A DNA stretch of 64,000 bases from contig JABDEE010000001.1 of assembly GCA_013287205.1 (NCBI GenBank), positions 4,882-68,881 of the forward strand, in the 5' to 3' direction. The position numbers and the translations under genes are program-made. This document shows positions 4,479 to 62,986 of this stretch, piece by piece; position 1 is the stretch's first letter, and the number at the start of each line of letters is the position of its first letter. Source of the DNA: Alphaproteobacteria bacterium (lineage in GTDB: Bacteria > Pseudomonadota > Alphaproteobacteria > UBA9655). The notes under the pieces are model-generated. The model did no database searches. It was given only the letters and a program-made list of their open reading frames with translations, and was not told the DNA's origin.

Positions 4479-4528
4479 TTGTCATCCCCGTACTCTTCGT
4501 TGTCATCCCCGCCTTCGCGGGGGCGACA
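4479..4528. repeat. palindromic-element family: terminus fragment plus 28-bp hairpin (copy C)
   Basis: TTGTCATCCCCGTACT, then TGTCATCCCCGCCTTCGCGGGGGCGACA, between the ctaE stop and the polA start. Confidence 0.8.
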
Positions 4529-4536
4529 TCCTTGAT

Positions 4537-21723: not shown

Positions 21724-21900
21724 GTGTCATCCCCGACTTAGAAACTCTCGCCCCCGACTTAATCGGGGGCATAGAGTTTCTTGAGCGGGGACCCAGGGCC
21801 ACACAAAAATTCTTTCTTACCTTGGTTTCTGGGTCCCCGATCAAGACCTTCTAACCCCCCGCAGGGCGGGGGCTAAGAAGGCCTAAGTCGGGGATGACAC
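21724..21900. repeat. palindromic-element family, full-length copy D (177 bp core)
   Basis: 18-bp perfect termini GTGTCATCCCCGACTTAG/CTAAGTCGGGGATGACAC. Inner GGGGACCCAG...CTGGGTCCCC plus two side hairpins. Outer GTAGAC..GTGAACAA arms extend to about 21683-21928. Confidence 0.9.
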
Positions 21901-22971: not shown

Positions 22972-23182
22972 GTGTCATCCCCGACTTAGACTTTCTTACC
23001 CCCGACTCGCCACGGCGTAGCCTTTGGCGTAGCTGGGCAAGTCGGGGAGTTAGAAAGACTTGATCGGGGACCCAGAAAGCCAAAGTATGAAAGAATTTTT
23101 GTGTTGCCCTGGGTCCCCGGTCAACAAGTCCTAACATCCCCAATAAATTGGGGACGAAGGACTTGTAAGCCGGGGATGACAC
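22972..23182. repeat. palindromic-element family, full-length copy E (211 bp)
   Basis: GTGTCATCCCCGACTTAG...GGGGACCCAG...CTGGGTCCCC...CCGGGGATGACAC, between the convergent genes asd and mutS. Confidence 0.9.
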
Positions 23183-25828: not shown

Positions 25829-25901
25829 GTGTCATCCCAGGCTTAGTGCCTCTTTTCCCCCGACTTGATCGGGGGCGAGAGTTTCTAGTCGGGGATGACA
25901 C
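25829..25901. repeat. palindromic-element family, short copy F (73 bp)
   Basis: GTGTCATCCCAGGCTTAG...CCCCCGACTTGATCGGGGG...CTAGTCGGGGATGACAC. Shares flanking AACAARATTCAAMAACAC and TTTGTTCACG..TCTAC arms with copy D. Confidence 0.85.
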
Positions 25902-29790: not shown

Positions 29791-29818
29791 TGTCATCCTC
29801 GCGCAGGCGGGGATGACA
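29791..29818. repeat. palindromic-element family, 28-bp hairpin (copy G)
   Basis: TGTCATCCTCGCGCAGGCGGGGATGACA lies 13 bp after the stop of 29122-29778. Confidence 0.8.
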
Positions 29819-31974: not shown

Positions 31975-32165
31975 TGTCATCCCCGCGACCCGGCTACGCC
32001 AAAGGCTTCGCCGTGGCGAGAGGCGGGGACCCAGCCTTAAAACCTTTTTTATTTTGCGTAACACAAAAATATGTGTATTGAGTTGTAGAAGAAAAACTAT
32101 CAAGTCTGGGTCCCCGCCTCTCGCCACGGCGAAGCCTTTGGCGTAGCCGGGTCGCGGGGATGACA
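31975..32165. repeat. palindromic-element family, full-length copy H (191 bp), preceded by a terminus fragment at 31946-31965
   Basis: TGTCATCCCCGCGACCCGGCTACGCCAAAGGCTTCGCC...GGGGACCCAG...CTGGGTCCCC...CGCGGGGATGACA. Confidence 0.9.
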
Positions 32166-39828: not shown

Positions 39829-39933
39829 ACGTGCTATCAAATAACTATTCTGAAAATTTGACTCCCCAAAAAATTTCCGTATAATGGGGGCAGCAAACAA
39901 GGGGAGGATTGTATCTTGGAAAAAATTGAACCT

Positions 39934-40773
39934 ATGGGTACCCGTTATTTAGATCCAACAAATGATGTTGCTTTTAAGCGGCTCTTTAGCGATAAACCGC
40001 GTCTCAAAGATTTTCTGAATGCGATTTTTCCTGCAGACTGGGCGCCGATTGCTGATCTTGACTTTATTCCCCTTGAAGAAATGCCTGCCGTTTTTTTGGG
40101 GCGCCGGAGTGTTTTTGATCTCAGATGTACGGATGAGACGGGGAAAGTCTACATTGTTGAAATGCAAAATCGCTCCCAAGATGCCTTTTTAAATCGCATC
40201 CAATGTTATGCGTCTCATGCCTATGTTGCTCAAGCCGTTAAGGGAGGGGATCATAGGAACCTCATGCCGGTGATCGTGCTCTCCCTTACCTCCGACAAAC
40301 TTTTTGAGGACGATGTCCCATGCGTGAGTTACCATTGGGATGTGGAACAAACGACGAAGAAGCGCCTTTTGATGGCGATTTCCTATATTTTTGTGGAGCT
40401 TCCCAAATTTAAAAAGACAGAAGCAGAACTCCAGGATATTCGGGACGAATGGCTCTATTTCTTTGCCAATTGGGAACATCTGAAAGCCCCGCCCGAGGAT
40501 CTCAAAGACCCGCTCGTTTTAAGCGCTTACGAGACCATGGAACAATTTAATTGGACCCCGGGGCAATATGATGCCTACTTCAGAATGCGCCTCGCCATAG
40601 AAGCTGACCAGCATGAGATCGAGAGGTCTGAGGAGAAAGGAAGGGCAGAAGGAAGAGTGGAAGAAAAAAAAGAAATTGCTCACAATCTACTTGCAAGAGG
40701 TATGAATCCTGAGGAAATTGCGCGTGTGACCAATCTCCCAGTGGAAGAAATTCGGAAATTTCAGGAGGTTTAA
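39934..40773 (+). CDS. Rpn-family recombination-promoting nuclease / putative transposase (PD-(D/E)XK)
   Basis: LDPTNDVAFKRLF...VYIVEMQ motifs. C-terminal helical EKGRAEGRVEEKKEIA region. Confidence 0.75.
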   Translation: MGTRYLDPTNDVAFKRLFSDKPRLKDFLNAIFPADWAPIADLDFIPLEEMPAVFLGRRSVFDLRCTDETGKVYIVEMQNRSQDAFLNRIQCYASHAYVAQAVKGGDHRNLMPVIVLSLTSDKLFEDDVPCVSYHWDVEQTTKKRLLMAISYIFVELPKFKKTEAELQDIRDEWLYFFANWEHLKAPPEDLKDPLVLSAYETMEQFNWTPGQYDAYFRMRLAIEADQHEIERSEEKGRAEGRVEEKKEIAHNLLARGMNPEEIARVTNLPVEEIRKFQEV

Positions 40774-43713: not shown

Positions 43714-44733
43714 ATGTCCAAGTTTTTAGATCTTTTTCAGGGAAGACAGTCGTCTTCTCCGCCCATCTGGTTCATGCGACAAGCCGGTCGATCTCTCCCA
43801 GAGTATCGCGAGGTTCGAAAGCAATATCCCAATTTCTTAGATCTTTGTTATACCCCAGAGCTTACCGCTCAGGTGACCCTGCAGCCTGTTGAACGGTTTG
43901 GCTTAGATGCGGCCATCCTTTTCTCAGATATCCTTGTTGTTCCGCAAGCGCTTGGGCTGGAGCTGTCTTTTGAAGAGGGAGCGGGACCGAAGCTCTCTCC
44001 TCTTTTCCTCTCTTCGTTGGATGGTGCGGTTTCCGACGATGGTTTTTCAGAAACGCTGGCGCCTATTTACGAAGCCATTCGGTTAATAAAGGAAAAGCGC
44101 CCCTTTCTTCCCCTTATCGGGTTCGCAGGAGCACCCTGGACCCTGGCCCTTTATATGCTGGAGGGGCAAGGGAGCCGAGATTTCGCCAACGCCAAAACCC
44201 AAGCATTTCAGAATGAAGAAAGGTTTGAGGACCTCTTAGAGGTTCTTGTCTTTGCTTCTGCATTGCATCTCATTGAGCAAGTCAAGGCTGGTGCTGATGT
44301 TGTTCAGCTTTTTGATACTTGGGCCGGACTCTGTCCTGCCACTCACTTTGAGAGGTGGATCGTGGAGCCTCACAGGGCCATTGTGCGCGTGTTGCGAAGA
44401 GAATTTCCTGATCTTCCTATCATTGGTTTCCCCAAAGGGATCGGAGCGAACCTTGTCATCTATGCTCATGAAGTTGGTGTGTCAGCTTTAAGCCTTGATG
44501 CGGGGGTGCCGCTTCCTTGGGTGGTCGAATTTCCCAAGAAATTGATCTTTCAGGGAAATCTGGATCCTCTTCTTCTGGTTGCAGGAGGAGATTCCCTCAA
44601 ACAGGCGATTCAAATGATTCATGAAGACATGGAGGGCAGGCCTTACATTTTCAATCTGGGCCATGGGGTCCTTCCCCAAACCCCTCTTCAGAACATTGAG
44701 GACTGTGTGAAATGGGTGCGGGCTTTGGCGTGA
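43714..44733 (+). CDS. hemE: uroporphyrinogen decarboxylase
   Basis: PIWFMRQAGR...FSDILV motifs. 339 aa. Confidence 0.95.
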   Translation: MSKFLDLFQGRQSSSPPIWFMRQAGRSLPEYREVRKQYPNFLDLCYTPELTAQVTLQPVERFGLDAAILFSDILVVPQALGLELSFEEGAGPKLSPLFLSSLDGAVSDDGFSETLAPIYEAIRLIKEKRPFLPLIGFAGAPWTLALYMLEGQGSRDFANAKTQAFQNEERFEDLLEVLVFASALHLIEQVKAGADVVQLFDTWAGLCPATHFERWIVEPHRAIVRVLRREFPDLPIIGFPKGIGANLVIYAHEVGVSALSLDAGVPLPWVVEFPKKLIFQGNLDPLLLVAGGDSLKQAIQMIHEDMEGRPYIFNLGHGVLPQTPLQNIEDCVKWVRALA

Positions 44734-45818
44734 AAAAGACTGCTGTTGTTCTCCTCAACTTAGGAGGTCCTCTTTCCCCCGAAGGTGTCTATCCTTTTCT
44801 CTTTAGCCTCTTTTACGATCCGTTGATTCTCACGCTTCCGAATCCTTTTCGGTATCTGCTCGCAAAGCTTATTGCGCGCGTGCGCCTTCCCAAAGCGCGA
44901 GCGATTTATGCTGTGTTGGGGGGGGCGTCTCCTCTTCTTGAAAACACGCAAGCCCAGGCAATGGCTTTGGAAAAGGAGTTGGGGACGGGATATCGTGTCT
45001 TTGTGGCCATGCGTCATGCCCCGCCTGTTTCACGTGAAACAGTTGCGAAGGTGAGGGCGTATAACCCAGATCAAGTTGTCCTCCTTCCTCTCTATCCTCA
45101 GTATTCGACCACCACCACAGAATCGTCTTTGCGAGCATGGAAGGAGGCCGCGAAGGGGTGGGAGGTGCCAACACACGTGATCGAGTCCTACCCCGCCCAG
45201 GAGGGGTTCCTAGAGGCCATGAAGGAGCTGATTGGTGAGCAGGTGGAAAATCCCAGCATCCTTTTTGTGGCCCATGGATTACCAGAGAAAACAATTAAAA
45301 GGGGAGATCCTTATCAGGCACAGGTGGAGGAGACGGCGAGGGCGCTGGAGAGGAAGCTTCTAAACAACTGGAATCAAACAGGGTGTCATCCCCGCGCAGG
45401 CGGGGACCCAGACTTGAATTCTTTTTGTGCAACACAAAAAGAATGTGTTGAGAGTAAAGAAAAACTGTCAGGTCTGGGTCCCCGCCTGCGCGGGGATGAC
45501 ACTGATGCTTTGGTAACCGGTCATCAATTCCTGATGACTATTTGTTACCAAAGCCGTGTGGGTCCTCTCAAGTGGATCGGCCCCTCTCTGGAGGAAGAAA
45601 TTTTAAAGACCGCTGCCGAAAAACGCCCCCTTGTGGTTGTTCCGATTTCTTTTGTTTCTGAGCATTCGGAAACGTTGGTGGAGCTTGATGTGATGATGCG
45701 GGATCTCGCCTTAAGCCACGGGTGCCCTTCCTATATCCGGATTTCGACTGTTCAGACCCACCCCTTGTTTATCAAGGGGTTGGCTTCTCTTGTTGTCACC
45801 TCTATAAAGGCCTTATGA
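44712..45818 (+). CDS. hemH: ferrochelatase carrying a 40-codon in-frame repeat-element insertion
   Basis: LLNLGGP...HGLPEK...YQSRVGPLKW...SEHSETLVELD motifs. Residues CHPRAGGDPDL...GPRLRGDDT are encoded by element copy J. An alternative GTG start lies at 44730. Confidence 0.9.
   Translation: MGAGFGVKKTAVVLLNLGGPLSPEGVYPFLFSLFYDPLILTLPNPFRYLLAKLIARVRLPKARAIYAVLGGASPLLENTQAQAMALEKELGTGYRVFVAMRHAPPVSRETVAKVRAYNPDQVVLLPLYPQYSTTTTESSLRAWKEAAKGWEVPTHVIESYPAQEGFLEAMKELIGEQVENPSILFVAHGLPEKTIKRGDPYQAQVEETARALERKLLNNWNQTGCHPRAGGDPDLNSFCATQKECVESKEKLSGLGPRLRGDDTDALVTGHQFLMTICYQSRVGPLKWIGPSLEEEILKTAAEKRPLVVVPISFVSEHSETLVELDVMMRDLALSHGCPSYIRISTVQTHPLFIKGLASLVVTSIKAL
45383..45502. repeat. palindromic-element family, copy J (120 bp) inside the hemH coding sequence
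   Basis: GTGTCATCCCCGCGCAGGCGGGGACCCAGACTTGAA...GGTCTGGGTCCCCGCCTGCGCGGGGATGACAC. Length is a multiple of 3 with no stop in the hemH frame. Confidence 0.92.
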
Positions 45819-46261
45819 TGCTCTCCTCCTACATCCCCCATCTCCTCGCTCTTCATCTCTTGGCTGTCATTGCGTGGATGGCGGGGCTTTTGTACTTGCC
45901 GCGCCTCTTTATTTATCATCTGGAATTTGAGCCAGGGGAAAAGGCCTACCAAGTCTTTTGCACCATGGAGCGGCGTTTGCTAAAAATCATCATGTTGCCA
46001 GCGATCCTTCTCACCTTTCTCTTTGGTGGTCTCCTTGCGTTTGCGACCCACGCCTGGGTGTCACCGTGGTTTCATGGGAAGCTTTTTCTCGTTTTGTTGC
46101 TGGCCGCCTTTCATGGATATCTCTCTCGTATTTACAAAGGGTATCTCGCAGGGAAGCGGCCCTCTCTCTCTCGGAAGGCCCTTGTGATTCTGAATGAGAT
46201 CCCTTTTTTATTGGCGATTCTCATTGTGTTTTTGGCGGTGTTGAAGCCTTCTCATCTTTGA
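45815..46261 (+). CDS. hemJ: protoporphyrinogen IX oxidase HemJ (UPF0093)
   Basis: WMAGLLYLPRLFIYH...MERRLLKIIMxPA...HGKLxLV motifs. ATGA overlap with hemH. Confidence 0.85.
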   Translation: MMLSSYIPHLLALHLLAVIAWMAGLLYLPRLFIYHLEFEPGEKAYQVFCTMERRLLKIIMLPAILLTFLFGGLLAFATHAWVSPWFHGKLFLVLLLAAFHGYLSRIYKGYLAGKRPSLSRKALVILNEIPFLLAILIVFLAVLKPSHL

Positions 46262-46325: not shown

Positions 46326-47345
46326 ATGACCGTCACCTGGAAAACCTTTTTAATAACTGCATCTCTGGCCCTGATATTTTCTGCATCCGTTAAGGCAGCG
46401 GATTCAGATGCCTCCTCCATCCCTCAAAAGTCTATTGCCATAAAAAAAGAAGATGTCCTACAGGGGGAAGGGGACAGGGGGCCTTCCTCGGAAGAAGACA
46501 GACGTGTCGTAGCCCCTCCAGGAGCTGATTCTTTCGAAGAAAAATCAGTGGTGTTGGAATTCTTGCAAACGCATGTTGATAAGGAAGCAAACGAAGAAAA
46601 TATAAAAAATATTTCTGAACTGAGTTTTTCACTCGATTCAGAATCTTTGAACGATGAAGAAGCAAAACAACTCGGATTGATCTTGGGCTCAGGCATCCTT
46701 CCGGTTAAAAATTTGGATTTAGAGTACTCGGGCATAAGCGAAAAAGGGATGGTGTCCATATGGGAAGGTGTAGAAAGAGGAAAGTCCCCTTCAACTCTCA
46801 CCAGTTTGTCATTGAGTATGTTTGAGAAGCAAGAAGGAACGATTGCGGCTTTGTGTAAGACGATGAGATCTGGGAATCTCTCTTTTCTTCAAATTTTGGA
46901 TTTGAGGGAAACACACATGGGAAATAAAGGGGCAATGGATCTGGCGCACGTATTTACATTAAAAAAACTTCAAGCTCTAATATGTTTATCCCTGGGAGAA
47001 ATAGACGATGGAGGGGACAAGATAGAATTTGCAGGAGCACAGGCTATAGGGAAAGCTTTAGAGTTAAGCAAACCCTCATTTCTTGAAGAGTTTACGTTTT
47101 ATGGCGGAAATATATTGGGTAAAGGCCTAATGTTACTACATGAAACAGTAAATGTAATTCCGTCTTTGAAATATTTTGACCTAGGCAAGACACGTGTAAC
47201 AAATAATATGGTTTGGGATATTTTCCGAACAAAGATGGAGCGACTTGGGTGGAAGAGAAGTGACAATCTAGAGATCTGGAAAAAAAAGGAAGATAAAGAA
47301 CAAGTTTCCTCCCCTTGTGAGGGGAACGCTGATAGCTTAGAGTAA
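46326..47345 (+). CDS. secreted leucine-rich-repeat protein (ribonuclease-inhibitor / RNI-like LRR type)
   Basis: Signal peptide. Repeats of about 28 aa (LxxLDLxxxxIxxxGxxxLxxxL), for example [24 protein letters not shown]+T-rich gene. Confidence 0.7.
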
Positions 47346-51466: not shown

Positions 51467-51675
51467 GTGTCATCCCCGACTTAGACCTTCTTAGCTCCCG
51501 CCTTGTGCGGGAGGTTAGAAGGTCTTGACCCGGCTACGCCAGAGGCTACGCCGCGGCGAGTCGGGGCCCCAGAGTTGCAGAAAAATTCTTTCATACCTTG
51601 GCTCCTGGGTCCCAGGTCAAGTGCCTCTAGCCCCCGACTCGTCGGGGGGGAAGAGGCACTAAGCCTGGGATGACA
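51467..51675. repeat. palindromic-element family, full-length copy K (209 bp)
   Basis: GTGTCATCCCCGACTTAGACC...CGGGGCCCCAG...CTGGGTCCCAGG...CCTGGGATGACA, between the convergent genes dnaE and chaB. Confidence 0.88.
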
Positions 51676-60382: not shown

Positions 60383-61756
60383 TTATCTCCCAAACATCCC
60401 CCAGGACAGCAGCACAAACAACGGTAAGAGGACGGCCAAGGACCAGGCCATGTATCCAAAGAAGCTGGGCATTTTGACGCCATAGCTTTCAGCTACGGTT
60501 TTGACCATGAAGTTCGGGGCATTGCCGATATAAGTCATGGCGCCCATAAAGACGGATCCTAAGGAAATCGCCACCAGTGTCTGAGAGAGGGTCGACATCA
60601 AGATGTTTGCGTCTCCCCCCGCCATGTGGAAAAACACAAGGTAGGTCGGTGCATTATCCAGGAAGGAAGACAGGGTCCCGGAGAGCCAAAAGTACATGCT
60701 ATTTTGAGGCTGTCCATTGGCGCTTACAAGGGCAATGAGGGAGGAGAGGGCGCCATTCTTTCCTGCATCTAAAATGGCTGTGACGGGGAGCACGGTCATA
60801 AAAATGCCAAAGAAGAGTTTGACGACCTCCTGAAGTGGTTCCCAAGAAAAGTGATTCACTTGCCGAATATGGGGGGCGGTAAAGTGGTAGGAAATGAAGC
60901 TCAAGAGAATGAGGCCGCCATCCCTCACAAGATTCTGAAGATCAAGGGAGGTTCCGCTAATCGTAAAGGTAATCTCAGGTTCCCACACGCCACTGAGAAT
61001 CACAAGTCCCATGACACCGAGGAAGAGAAGCGCGTTATCGCCTCCCTTCATCGTCACGAGAGGGGTGGAGCGTAACGGTGAAATTTTCTCCACCTCACGC
61101 ATCACAAAGCGATCCACGCCATAAAAAATGAGGAGAATGGCCGCGGCGGTGCAGAGCATGGGGAGGGCCAAGGATTGCATTGTCCACAAGAAATCGACGC
61201 CATTTAGAAATCCGAGGAAGAGGGGAGGGTCGCCCAGAGGCGTGAGGGCGCCTCCCACATTTCCCACCATAAAAATGAAGAAGATCATGTGGTAGGCTTG
61301 ATGTTTGCGCGTCGCGTTCATCTTGAGAAAGGGGCGGACGAGGAGCATGGCGGCACCTGTGGTGCCTACCCATCCGGCTAGCAAAGTGCCGACCGCTAAA
61401 AAGCATGTGTTCATAAAGGGGGTTGCTGGGGACCTTACGGAAATTTGGATGCCGCTGGCAATGGTGTAGAGTGTGCTCATCATGATGATGAAGGGGAGAT
61501 AATGGTGGAGGAGCATTCCTAAAATCGCCTGATGAGTCAGGGACCATCCAAATTCTGTGCTGAGACTGAGAACAGTGATCATGGCCCAGGCCATTGCCAC
61601 TTTCCCGTAGTGTTTTTCCCAAAACCGCATGGAGATCAGGGGGAGGAACGCAAGAGACAGAAGCATGCCGAGAAAGGGGATGACCCAGGTGAGCTCCAAG
61701 GTGTGGCCTGGGAGGATGCTTGGGTTTGCGGAGAGGGGGGAGTTCCAACTTGTCAT
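60383..61756 (-). CDS. ArsB/NhaD-superfamily ion transporter (putative Na+/H+ antiporter)
   Basis: Polytopic membrane protein (WVIPFLGMLLSLAFLP...FWEKHYGKV...GNAPNFMVK). Only the C-terminal 457 codons of the 806-aa ORF are credible. The proposed ATG lies in the terminus of element copy L. Confidence 0.75.
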   Translation of the reverse strand: MTSWNSPLSANPSILPGHTLELTWVIPFLGMLLSLAFLPLISMRFWEKHYGKVAMAWAMITVLSLSTEFGWSLTHQAILGMLLHHYLPFIIMMSTLYTIASGIQISVRSPATPFMNTCFLAVGTLLAGWVGTTGAAMLLVRPFLKMNATRKHQAYHMIFFIFMVGNVGGALTPLGDPPLFLGFLNGVDFLWTMQSLALPMLCTAAAILLIFYGVDRFVMREVEKISPLRSTPLVTMKGGDNALLFLGVMGLVILSGVWEPEITFTISGTSLDLQNLVRDGGLILLSFISYHFTAPHIRQVNHFSWEPLQEVVKLFFGIFMTVLPVTAILDAGKNGALSSLIALVSANGQPQNSMYFWLSGTLSSFLDNAPTYLVFFHMAGGDANILMSTLSQTLVAISLGSVFMGAMTYIGNAPNFMVKTVAESYGVKMPSFFGYMAWSLAVLLPLFVLLSWGMFGR

Positions 61757-61875
61757 CCCCGCGAAGGCGGGGACCCAGACTTGAGCATTTTTTAAAAAGT
61801 TCCTAACAAAAAAATTTTTTGAAATCAGAGACAAAAAGAATTTAAGTCTGGGTCCCCGCCTTCGCGGGGATGACA
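61751..61875. repeat. palindromic-element family, copy L (125 bp)
   Basis: TGTCATCCCCGCGAAGGCGGGGACCCAGACTTGAGC...TTTAAGTCTGGGTCCCCGCCTTCGCGGGGATGACA. Confidence 0.92.
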
Positions 61876-62047
61876 AGTGGGGGTGCGGAGATGACAATTT
61901 ACGTATGGCCTGCACTCCACGAGATAGTTTGAGATGCTGCCTCCCGACCCCTGATCCTTGACTCCTGACTCCTGACAGACTTGACATCTTCCCCCCTTCC
62001 CTCCATGGTTCCTCGATAAAATCAGTATAGGGGATAAGGGTGAATTC

Positions 62048-62986
62048 ATGAAAGCGTTTCTTTTTCCAGGACAGGGATCTCAGCACATCGGGATGGGGCG
62101 TGAGCTCTATGACACCTTCGCGTGTGCGCGGGAGGTATTTCAAGAAGTGGATGAGGCTTTGAGCCAAAATCTCACACAGGTGATGTTTGAAGGACCCGAC
62201 GACGAACTTGTCCGCACCGAAAATGCGCAGCCCGCACTCATGACTGTGAGCATGGCCGTGATGCGGGTGCTTGAAAAGGAAGGAGGACATACGCTTCCTC
62301 AGATGGCGTCTTATGTGGCTGGTCATTCCTTGGGCCAGTATGCGGCTCTGTGTGCCGCCCAGTCTTTGACATTGTCTGAGACGGCGCGTCTTTTGAAGCT
62401 GCGGGGCCAGGCGATGCAGCAGGCTGTGCCGCTCGGGGAAGGGGCGATGGCGGCTGTCCTTGGGTTGGAGCTCGAGGTGGTTGAGGACATTGTGAAACAA
62501 GCGGGCATGGGGGAAGTGTGCGACGTTGCCAATGACAATAGCCCCGGTCAGGTGGTCATCAGTGGTCACGCCCACGCCATCGACCGTGCGATTGAGCTTT
62601 CCAAAGAGCGAGGCGCGAAGCGGAGTCTTTTGCTTAACGTGAGTGCCCCTTTTCATTGTTCCTTGATGATGCCAGCGCAAGCGCGCATGGCGGAAGCTCT
62701 TGGTGAAGCCGTTATTTCTGACCCTCGTGTTCCCGTGATGGATAACGTTACGGCAACGGTGGTGACAAGTGGGGATGCGTTGCGGGATCTTCTCGTGCAG
62801 CAAATGACAGGGCGCATTCGGTGGCGGGAGAGTCTGATGGCCTTAGCAGATCTCGGTGTCACCACCGCCGTTGAGGTGGGGGCGGGCAAAGTTCTCACGG
62901 GTCTTGCAAAGCGGACGGTTCCGACCTTTGAAACGGTGACCTTGAACACGCCCGCTGATATTGAAGCCTTTTTGAAATCAATTTAA
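62048..62986 (+). CDS. fabD: malonyl-CoA:ACP transacylase
   Basis: FPGQGSQ...GHSLGQY(A) active site. 312 aa. Confidence 0.95.
   Translation: MKAFLFPGQGSQHIGMGRELYDTFACAREVFQEVDEALSQNLTQVMFEGPDDELVRTENAQPALMTVSMAVMRVLEKEGGHTLPQMASYVAGHSLGQYAALCAAQSLTLSETARLLKLRGQAMQQAVPLGEGAMAAVLGLELEVVEDIVKQAGMGEVCDVANDNSPGQVVISGHAHAIDRAIELSKERGAKRSLLLNVSAPFHCSLMMPAQARMAEALGEAVISDPRVPVMDNVTATVVTSGDALRDLLVQQMTGRIRWRESLMALADLGVTTAVEVGAGKVLTGLAKRTVPTFETVTLNTPADIEAFLKSI

Follow-up and report, generated by a model that had tools for sequence, protein, structure and literature searches.

CGTC-1 repetitive extragenic palindromes (REPs) are defined by a terminal CGTC tag (the variants TGTC and CCTC being accepted), an 8-bp stem, a 4-nt loop and a CCA tail, and CGTC stems carry complementary A/T residues at stem positions 1 and 2 (Di Nocera, De Gregorio & Rocco 2013, BMC Genomics 14:522, PMC3733652). 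They predominate in Alphaproteobacteria and are chiefly intergenic; their commonest arrangement is the HH dimer, in which the tags lie outside, with spacers of 20-100 bp, and they have been equated with the Neisseria repeat dRS3 and with the Rickettsia conorii palindromic element RPE-6 (PMC3733652). The present work concerns a 120-bp palindromic element located at positions 45383-45502 of a 64-kb stretch of DNA (hereafter the window; contig JABDEE010000001.1), inside hemH, the ferrochelatase gene of an uncultured alphaproteobacterium that lies outside that survey.

Rickettsia palindromic elements (RPEs) within protein-coding genes were reportedly described by Ogata and colleagues in 2000 and 2002, work that PMC3733652 cites. 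Some RPEs have been shown to be retained in both mRNA and protein. The classic protein-coding RPE, 100-150 bp long, is RPE-1, whose sequence is different from that of the hemH element. Pairs of inverted REPs that move as one unit are called REPINs.

REPs lying wholly inside open reading frames (ORFs) were found in several species, more than half of them being dimers or groups that encode 20-30 aa, and some ORFs were hit twice (PMC3733652). R. conorii has the most in-ORF CGTC cases, which give the peptides CHSRESGNP, CHSRESGDP and DSRFRGND, and DSRLRGND in 5-aminolevulinate synthase; an intragenic CGTC-1 dimer of E. litoralis truB (RHPREGGDPANLGDHDESQLDPRLRGG) is read as RHPREGGDP...DPRLRGG (supplementary file 4, PMC3733652). 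Ferrochelatase (hemH) is not among the target genes of the supplementary table of that paper.

On the evidence reported below, it is likely that an HH dimer of REPs, REPIN-like and belonging to a family with many copies in this genome, as a rule between genes, inserted in the hemH linker and is translated as a probably disordered loop of 40 residues on a probably active ferrochelatase.

Anatomy and family of the palindrome

The gene, the element and its parts are as follows.

44712-45818, + strand: hemH (ferrochelatase) ORF, 368 aa, with the insert at residues about 224-264 (ORF list, Pfam, PDB comparison, AlphaFold2)
45383-45502, no strand: palindromic element, assigned as an HH dimer of two CGTC-1-type REPs (REPIN-like), 120 bp or 40 codons in the frame of hemH
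45383-45413, + strand: left REP arm, with tag TGTC (45384-45387), stem ATCCCCGC (45388-45395), loop GCAG (45396-45399), stem GCGGGGAC (45400-45407) and tail CCA (45408-45410)
45414-45471: spacer, 58 nt, A+T-rich, with its own 12-bp stem-loop (45418-45429 / 45433-45444)
45472-45502, - strand: right REP arm, which is the left arm in reverse complement (0 mismatches), with the tag complement at 45498-45501

The original prediction, made from the letters of the window, had placed a palindrome of this length in frame in hemH, and its coordinates, length and stop-free reading were all recovered as claimed. The full arms (45383-45417 and 45468-45502) are 35 nt long and 97% complementary, the outer 31 nt (GTGTCATCCCCGCGCAGGCGGGGACCCAGAC) being perfectly so, and shuffles of the window gave zero matches to the 31-nt arm. 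The left arm alone folds into a 7-bp stem with a 4-nt loop, and the tags of both arms face outward. Read as TGTC-ATCCCCGC-GCAG-GCGGGGAC-CCA, the arm agrees with the CGTC-1 definition in tag, loop and tail, as does the pair in its HH layout and in its 58-nt spacer. When transcribed, the whole element forms a single hairpin (-91.8 kcal/mol, z -16.3; -57.7 kcal/mol for the DNA) with an almost perfect helix of 48 bp.

Read in the frame of hemH, the element has no stop codon and encodes G-CHPRAGGDPDLNSFCATQKECVESKEKLSGLGPRLRGDD-T, which follows AHGLPEKTIKRGDPYQ (the AHGLPEK/GDPYQ block) and precedes CYQSRVGPLKW. Only two of the six combinations of frame and orientation are open. Two other ways of accommodating such a segment were considered and rejected. 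For an intein or an intron, Pfam gives Ferrochelatase only, and no Rfam intron or ribozyme match was obtained; for translational bypass, there is no take-off/landing arrangement with an in-frame stop, and the insert is stop-free and a multiple of three long, so that bypass is not needed.

Compared with known CGTC-1 dimers, the element resembles them in tag, stem length (8 nt), loop, tail, outward tags, a spacer holding a small stem-loop, and nearly identical peptides. By the sequence of its arms, it is assigned to this family as an HH dimer of CGTC-1-type REPs. In HemH the arms give CHPRAGGDP...LGPRLRGDD, and the truB and R. conorii peptides come from the same arms in the same reading frame: compared as peptides, CHSRESGNP and DSRFRGND of R. 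conorii are the counterparts of CHPRAGGDP and GPRLRGDD. However, the 40-aa insert of HemH is longer than the 20-30 aa of typical intragenic CGTC-1 dimers.

The likeness to RPEs extends to the setting, a palindromic repeat lying in frame in a housekeeping gene and being absent from orthologs, with the frame and the conserved motifs kept; the housekeeping genes that carry RPEs likewise seem to remain functional. The parallel with RPEs inside ORFs, as drawn in the original prediction, holds. The same prediction took the hemH repeat for a different element, and this part has to be revised, as the arms fit CGTC-1 REPs, a family that includes R. conorii RPE-6 and Neisseria dRS3, and in-frame dimers with nearly the same peptides are documented. 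What distinguishes the hemH element from the Rickettsia RPE is a stem richer in G+C, an unrelated spacer and a different host.

In Neisseria, the REP core is ATTCCCGCGCAGGCGGGAATC, and REPINs are formed by oppositely oriented pairs separated by less than 130 bp (Bertels & Rainey, bioRxiv 10.1101/2021.07.10.451892). The hemH arm is identical to this REP/dRS3 sequence at 18 of 21 nt. Like a REPIN, the hemH element consists of two inverted REPs with co-varying arms in one hairpin unit. The Neisseria copies are described as extragenic or clustered in mosaic elements, whereas the hemH copy lies in an ORF.

A further relative was found among RNA families. The element matches Rfam RF02625, the Wolbachia RNA WsnRNA46, over the full model with 51.7 bits (E 2e-10), below the gathering score of 65.3; WsnRNA46 was not reported in the gathering-threshold Rfam scan of the window, and all Rfam matches are sub-threshold. 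The WsnRNA46 consensus starts with GGUGUCAUCC, continues with ...GGAUCCAGA and ends with ...GGAUGACAC; it forms one long hairpin, with tag, tail and HH layout as in the hemH element. It differs in its inner stem-loop, which is CGTC-4-like in having a 9-bp stem and a loop of 5 nt, and its published description is that of a small RNA gene and not of a coding insert. In anatomy, WsnRNA46 corresponds to an HH dimer of CGTC-4-type REPs, and this Wolbachia small RNA may therefore be a transcribed repeat element. Matches to miRNA precursors in Rfam were disregarded as generic matches of long hairpins.

HemH compared with its orthologs

The homolog search covered 5.8 billion proteins, and 27 orthologs were aligned with HemH of the window. 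The sole closer relative, P0001, is a 269-aa fragment encoded on a 4,033-bp contig and 100% identical, insert included; full-length HemH is on record from a 70,727-bp contig, and the sequence is thus known from two records. The remaining homologs are 297-354 aa long and at most 61% identical. Between the helix ending in ...L-x-E-K-L and the invariant CYQSRVGP, the linker has about 9 residues in 27 of 27 orthologs and 60 in HemH of the window; the original prediction had placed the insert between a conserved block and the YQSRVGP block, where the E. coli enzyme would have a short linker, and a short linker is what the orthologs have. The best ortholog, P0002, is encoded in a syntenic locus (L115; MFS, dnaQ, coaE, hemE, hemH, ..., hemJ, dcd, dnaE, with hemE and hemH in the same order as in the window); its linker is short (RLSEEDLVL), and the repeat is absent. 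A homologous 40-aa segment in orthologs devoid of the repeat had been named in advance as the observation that would speak against an insertion; it was looked for and is absent from the 27 aligned orthologs, the syntenic P0002 among them, and the prediction therefore stands on this point.

Among 1.84 billion representative proteins, the 41-aa insert peptide matches P0001 only. Its two ends are common and the whole peptide is unique, which fits conserved arms joined by a private spacer. A scan of metagenomes with a 23-nt hemH flank, for alleles with or without the insert, gave no match.

The insertion had also been expected to appear as a clean 40-aa indel when aligned with orthologs. The alignment did not bear this out: the excess of HemH is about 51 residues, of which the 120-bp element makes up 40 and an adjacent hairpin about 9.

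45507-45554: second hairpin, 4 nt downstream of the element, with an 11-bp perfect inverted repeat GCTTTGGTAAC / GTTACCAAAGC

This second hairpin reads GCTTTGGTAAC-C-GGTCATCA-ATTCC-TGATGACT-ATTT-GTTACCAAAGC (-24 kcal/mol, z -8). Its right arm is formed by the invariant C-Y-Q-S codons of hemH, its left arm is the exact 11-nt reverse complement of these, and its core has the GTCATC...GATGAC ends of the REP family. The residues that it adds (TGHQFLMTI) are in frame, orthologs having D-x-x-[LIV]-CYQS where HemH has D-ALV-TGHQFLMTI-CYQS. Perfect inverted repeats of at least 11 nt with a spacer of at most 40 nt occur at 4 sites in the 64-kb window, and the other 3 are inside REP elements. No other copy of the second hairpin was found anywhere searched. 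An origin of the extra residues by direct duplication was dropped, because the apparent similarity stems from a palindromic GGTAACC/GGTTACC core.

The Pfam family PF00762 (Ferrochelatase) matches the hemH ORF with an E value of 8e-92 in two stretches (residues 9-216 and 277-366), and solved ferrochelatases (human FECH) match it with E 4e-37, again in two stretches (9-214 and 277-366); both matches are split in two by the insert. In the alignment of the 27 orthologs, all family-invariant columns are kept in HemH, including H188 (AHGLP) and H318/E320 (SEHSETL), the counterparts of the human catalytic His and of the H-x-E motif. Mean identity to the orthologs is 0.71 over residues 277-366 and 0.64 over residues 9-216. 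Conservation does not drop from the N-terminal to the C-terminal part, and the sequence beyond the insert shows no sign of decay. HemH is thus probably an active enzyme. In addition, HemH is without some 6 residues that are present in 27 of 27 orthologs (window 45231-45250, residues about 174-180; ELI------GEQVENPS against ELTLPxYxxAxKxGxP); the gene therefore also has a lineage-specific deletion, upstream of the catalytic His.

An AlphaFold2 model built from the 28-sequence alignment has a mean predicted local distance difference test (pLDDT) score of 84.2 and a predicted template-modelling score (pTM) of 0.83, with 233 residues at pLDDT of 90 or above. Residues with pLDDT below 50 are 228-232 and 234-269, between a helix (201-223) and a strand (274-280). 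When compared by Foldseek, the HemH model has TM scores of 0.77-0.80 against human and yeast ferrochelatase (0.77 for the human enzyme). The insert is thus predicted to form an unstructured excursion from a confident ferrochelatase fold. Judged by topology, it would be joined to a beta-strand of the second Rossmann-like domain at the N-terminal end of that strand, with the catalytic His at the C-terminal end of the preceding strand; because of this strand-end topology, the loop is expected on the side away from the porphyrin pocket.

The neighbours of hemH in its cluster are given below; hemE, hemH and hemJ overlap as the original prediction had stated.

43714-44733, + strand: hemE (uroporphyrinogen decarboxylase), overlapping the hemH start (Pfam URO-D, E 5e-103)
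45815-46261, + strand: hemJ-type UPF0093 gene, whose ATG overlaps the hemH stop codon (Pfam PF03653, E 1e-44)

Copies of the repeat in the window and in other genomes

The ends of the element (TGTCATCCCCG ... CGGGGATGACA) recur at 11 or more other loci of the window. They sit between housekeeping genes or upstream of a gene start, none of them in confirmed coding sequence, and they are located at the following positions.

1607-1716: further locus of the repeat
4480-4530: further locus of the repeat
21724-21900: further locus of the repeat
22972-23182: further locus of the repeat
25829-25901: further locus of the repeat
29791-29818: further locus of the repeat
31947/31975-32165: further locus of the repeat
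37568 onward (to about 37600): further locus of the repeat
51467-51675: further locus of the repeat
about 61750-61876: further locus of the repeat

With the hemH copy included, at least 12 loci are thus present in 64 kb, the majority of them paired with their tags outside. Pairs of GTCATC...GATGAC within 260 nt number 14 in the window, against 1.1 in shuffles. The description of the insert as a repeated element of selfish type in an otherwise intact hemH, within a hemE-hemH-hemJ cluster, is supported. The two arms of a dimer co-vary: the loop is GCAG in both arms of the hemH copy and GAAG in both arms of the 61750 copy. The copies vary in their spacer, and some have further palindromes nested in an arm loop. 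The spacer of the 31975-32165 copy is 93.5% identical to positions 75-105 of the element, the spacer of the latter being partly common to other copies of the window.

The copy at 29791-29818 is a collapsed perfect palindrome of 28 nt. A second palindromic module (about GGCTACGCCAAAGGCTTCGCCGTGGCGAG) is nested in some REP arm loops (22990-23040, 31990-32030, 32120-32160 and 51530-51570), and other arms hold a different nested palindrome (ACTTAGA...CCCCCGACTTAATCGGGGG...). As the nested palindromes are of different kinds, the elements are mosaics of several repeat types.

The 806-aa ORF at 60383-62803 (- strand), which holds the copy at 61750-61876, was considered as a second intragenic case and rejected, because its CitMHS_2 domain starts after the element and its upstream part overlaps another ORF. 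The CitMHS_2 transporter domain follows closely after this dimer. The reading frame of the ORF continues across the dimer (SSPRRRGPR...WVPAFAGMT), with an in-frame ATG available in the REP end GGGATGACA. In this respect, the dimer resembles the N-terminal cases of PMC3733652.

The exact 28-nt core of the arm was then sought in 185,579 species genomes, in a scan that did not include the source genome. It occurs in at least 114 loci (L001-L114) of Alpha-, Beta- and Gammaproteobacteria and of metagenome-assembled genomes (MAGs) of other phyla. Among these loci are 15 inverted pairs 82-160 bp apart, with unrelated spacers, and the arm also occurs singly in many genomes. The genome labels among the matches listed include Planctomycetota, Eisenbacteria, Bdellovibrionales and a Nomurabacteria MAG. 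Some matches in distant lineages may be binning errors; otherwise, the conservation of the 28-nt arm over such a distance is striking for a repeat without an assigned transposase.

In two of the loci, the identical 28-nt arm lies in frame in a gene confirmed by Pfam. In a Burkholderiales MnmE (L070, about 2785-2812), it encodes VIPAKAGTQ in the G domain, between the NKVD and SAK motifs; in an Lhr helicase (L098, about 2761-2788), it encodes LGPRLRGDD.

The hemH element is not a new kind of element; what is new is its host gene and its organism. As the phenomenon dates back to 2000 in the literature, with a catalogue published in 2013, the hemH case opens no new question. With it, ferrochelatase, a well-studied enzyme with many solved structures, joins the housekeeping proteins that tolerate REP/RPE-derived peptide insertions, here outside Rickettsia. 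The protein-coding palindromes of Rickettsia, dRS3 of Neisseria and the hemH element would represent one very widespread REP architecture, with a 28-nt core identical across distant lineages. For annotation, HPRAGGDP, GPRLRGDD, VIPAKAGTQ and IPAFAGMT inside proteins flag REP insertions, and such hairpins can split domain matches or break assemblies.

Proposed entry of the element into hemH and rival explanations

In the sequence of events that we favour, one copy of the REP dimer would have landed in the one part of hemH where length changes are tolerated, a variable linker bounded by the helix after the catalytic His motif (AHGLP...GDPYQ) and by the strand ICYQSRVGP. It would have persisted thanks to a length divisible by three and to a reading frame that is one of the two, among six, without stops; for the same reasons, it would then be translated as the 40-residue loop CHPRAGGDP...LGPRLRGDD. 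The mover may have been a single-strand HUH transposase of the type associated with REPs (RAYT), or some other function, of the host or of mobile DNA, that acts on the hairpin. On this step the literature disagrees: CGTC REPs are described as being without a dedicated transposase (Di Nocera et al., PMC3733652), whereas the Neisseria repeats are assigned to a Group 2 RAYT (Bertels & Rainey, bioRxiv 10.1101/2021.07.10.451892). The only transposase-like gene seen in the window is a PDDEXK_2 (Rpn-like) ORF at 39916-40773.

Several observations weigh against the insertion of a REP dimer into a hemH that still works. In the stem ATCCCCGC / GCGGGGAC, which has 7 Watson-Crick pairs, position 2 is T-A as in CGTC stems, but position 1 is an A-C mismatch instead of A-T. 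Eleven extra residues of HemH lie beyond what the element explains. Pfam scans of about 54 window ORFs, some of them concatenated, gave no match to the RAYT family Y1_Tnp (PF01797), and tblastn with an E. coli RAYT query gave no match either in the window or in any of the 114 loci, so that the mobilisation step is unsupported here. The 48-bp helix could be cut by RNase III in the mRNA or could impede ribosomes. Furthermore, the perfectly complementary arms could mean that the insertion is recent, and the missing decay downstream would then say little. Finally, a random insertion of a copy of this length is open one time in three, so that the open frame alone is weak evidence of selection.

Recency is also the starting point of an unlikely explanation, in which hemH is a young pseudogene or a crippled allele hit by a recent disruptive insertion, its open frame being luck and its heme coming from another ferrochelatase or from a host. 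The 100% complementarity of the arms over 31 nt suggests little time since insertion or homogenisation, the chance of an open frame (2/6) is not small, and the hairpin is very stable. Yet the second hairpin segment also keeps the frame, which means that two separate length changes were both multiples of three. The retention of every invariant ferrochelatase residue and the even conservation of the two halves of the protein, the intact overlap of the hemH stop with the hemJ start, and the need for heme implied by a cytochrome c oxidase subunit III gene in the window also speak against it, as does the fact that this repeat has often been documented in housekeeping genes. The stability of the RNA has a second possible meaning, namely that the hairpins are kept for an RNA role in the operon (as a site for RNase III, by stabilising the hemE segment upstream, or as a brake on translation, and so setting the ratio of hemE to hemH/hemJ), the coding of the loop being incidental. 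The two adjacent hairpins together reach -123.8 kcal/mol over 212 nt (z -13.6), an action as RNA elements is ascribed to REPs that follow ORFs (PMC3733652), and the related Wolbachia repeat dimer stands in Rfam as the small RNA WsnRNA46, with a match here below threshold. However, the 120-bp element is not followed by a T-run and so is not an intrinsic terminator, and a weak terminator-like match at 45519-45539 is within chance (9 found against 4.8 ± 1.8). Cleavage would destroy the mRNA of a needed enzyme, and the structure is not conserved in the syntenic relative. Neutral tolerance explains the arrangement well enough, no finding requires an RNA role, and we regard such a role as very unlikely.

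As for the nature of the element, bacterial miniature inverted-repeat transposable elements (MITEs) such as Correia/NEMIS, RUP and ERIC are alike in being short non-coding repeats with inverted ends that form hairpins and occasionally lie in genes or overlap them. An origin as a classical MITE, that is, as a deletion derivative of an insertion sequence (IS) moved by a DDE transposase, would suit the inverted repeats of 31-35 nt at the ends, the 120-bp length, the lack of coding capacity and the multiple copies. MITEs, however, have target-site duplications and IS-like terminal inverted repeats, whereas no direct repeat was found at the flanks of the hemH copy (...CAAACAGG / ... / TGATGC...) or at the other copies of the window, and each arm is in itself an autonomous REP-type stem-loop, which also occurs singly in many genomes. 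Between genomes, the spacers are wholly different while the arms are identical, and no IS with these ends was seen, which makes a MITE highly improbable. That the segment is an artefact of assembly or a chimera of amplification, or else an ancestral, lineage-specific loop of this ferrochelatase unrelated to repeats, is scarcely credible. Palindromes can indeed arise as amplification chimeras, and the sequence is known from two records only; but these are two different contigs, the segment belongs to a repeat family with many copies in the window and in other genomes, none of the 27 aligned orthologs has it, and its peptide has P0001 as its sole match.

The insertion of a REP dimer into hemH, followed by its translation, thus remains the explanation that we prefer, and the second hairpin may add an earlier chapter to it. 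It is plausible that this hairpin is a collapsed older REP dimer extended by template switching. In a fuller proposal, the hemH linker would record two successive palindrome events, the earlier dimer having collapsed and then been extended by template switching (quasi-palindrome correction), with its left arm copied from the C-Y-Q-S codons, and the pair of hairpins might also serve as a signal for RNA processing or pausing within the operon. We hold this proposal as a whole to be quite unlikely. If it is true, a REP insertion not only adds a loop but also actively rewrites the neighbouring coding sequence.

Two further features of the window may be mentioned. Between hemJ and dcd, a secreted protein resembling leucine-rich-repeat proteins is encoded at 46326-47345; it has no Pfam match and is absent from the syntenic locus L115. 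An AbiEi/AbiEii toxin-antitoxin pair is located at 15304-16189.

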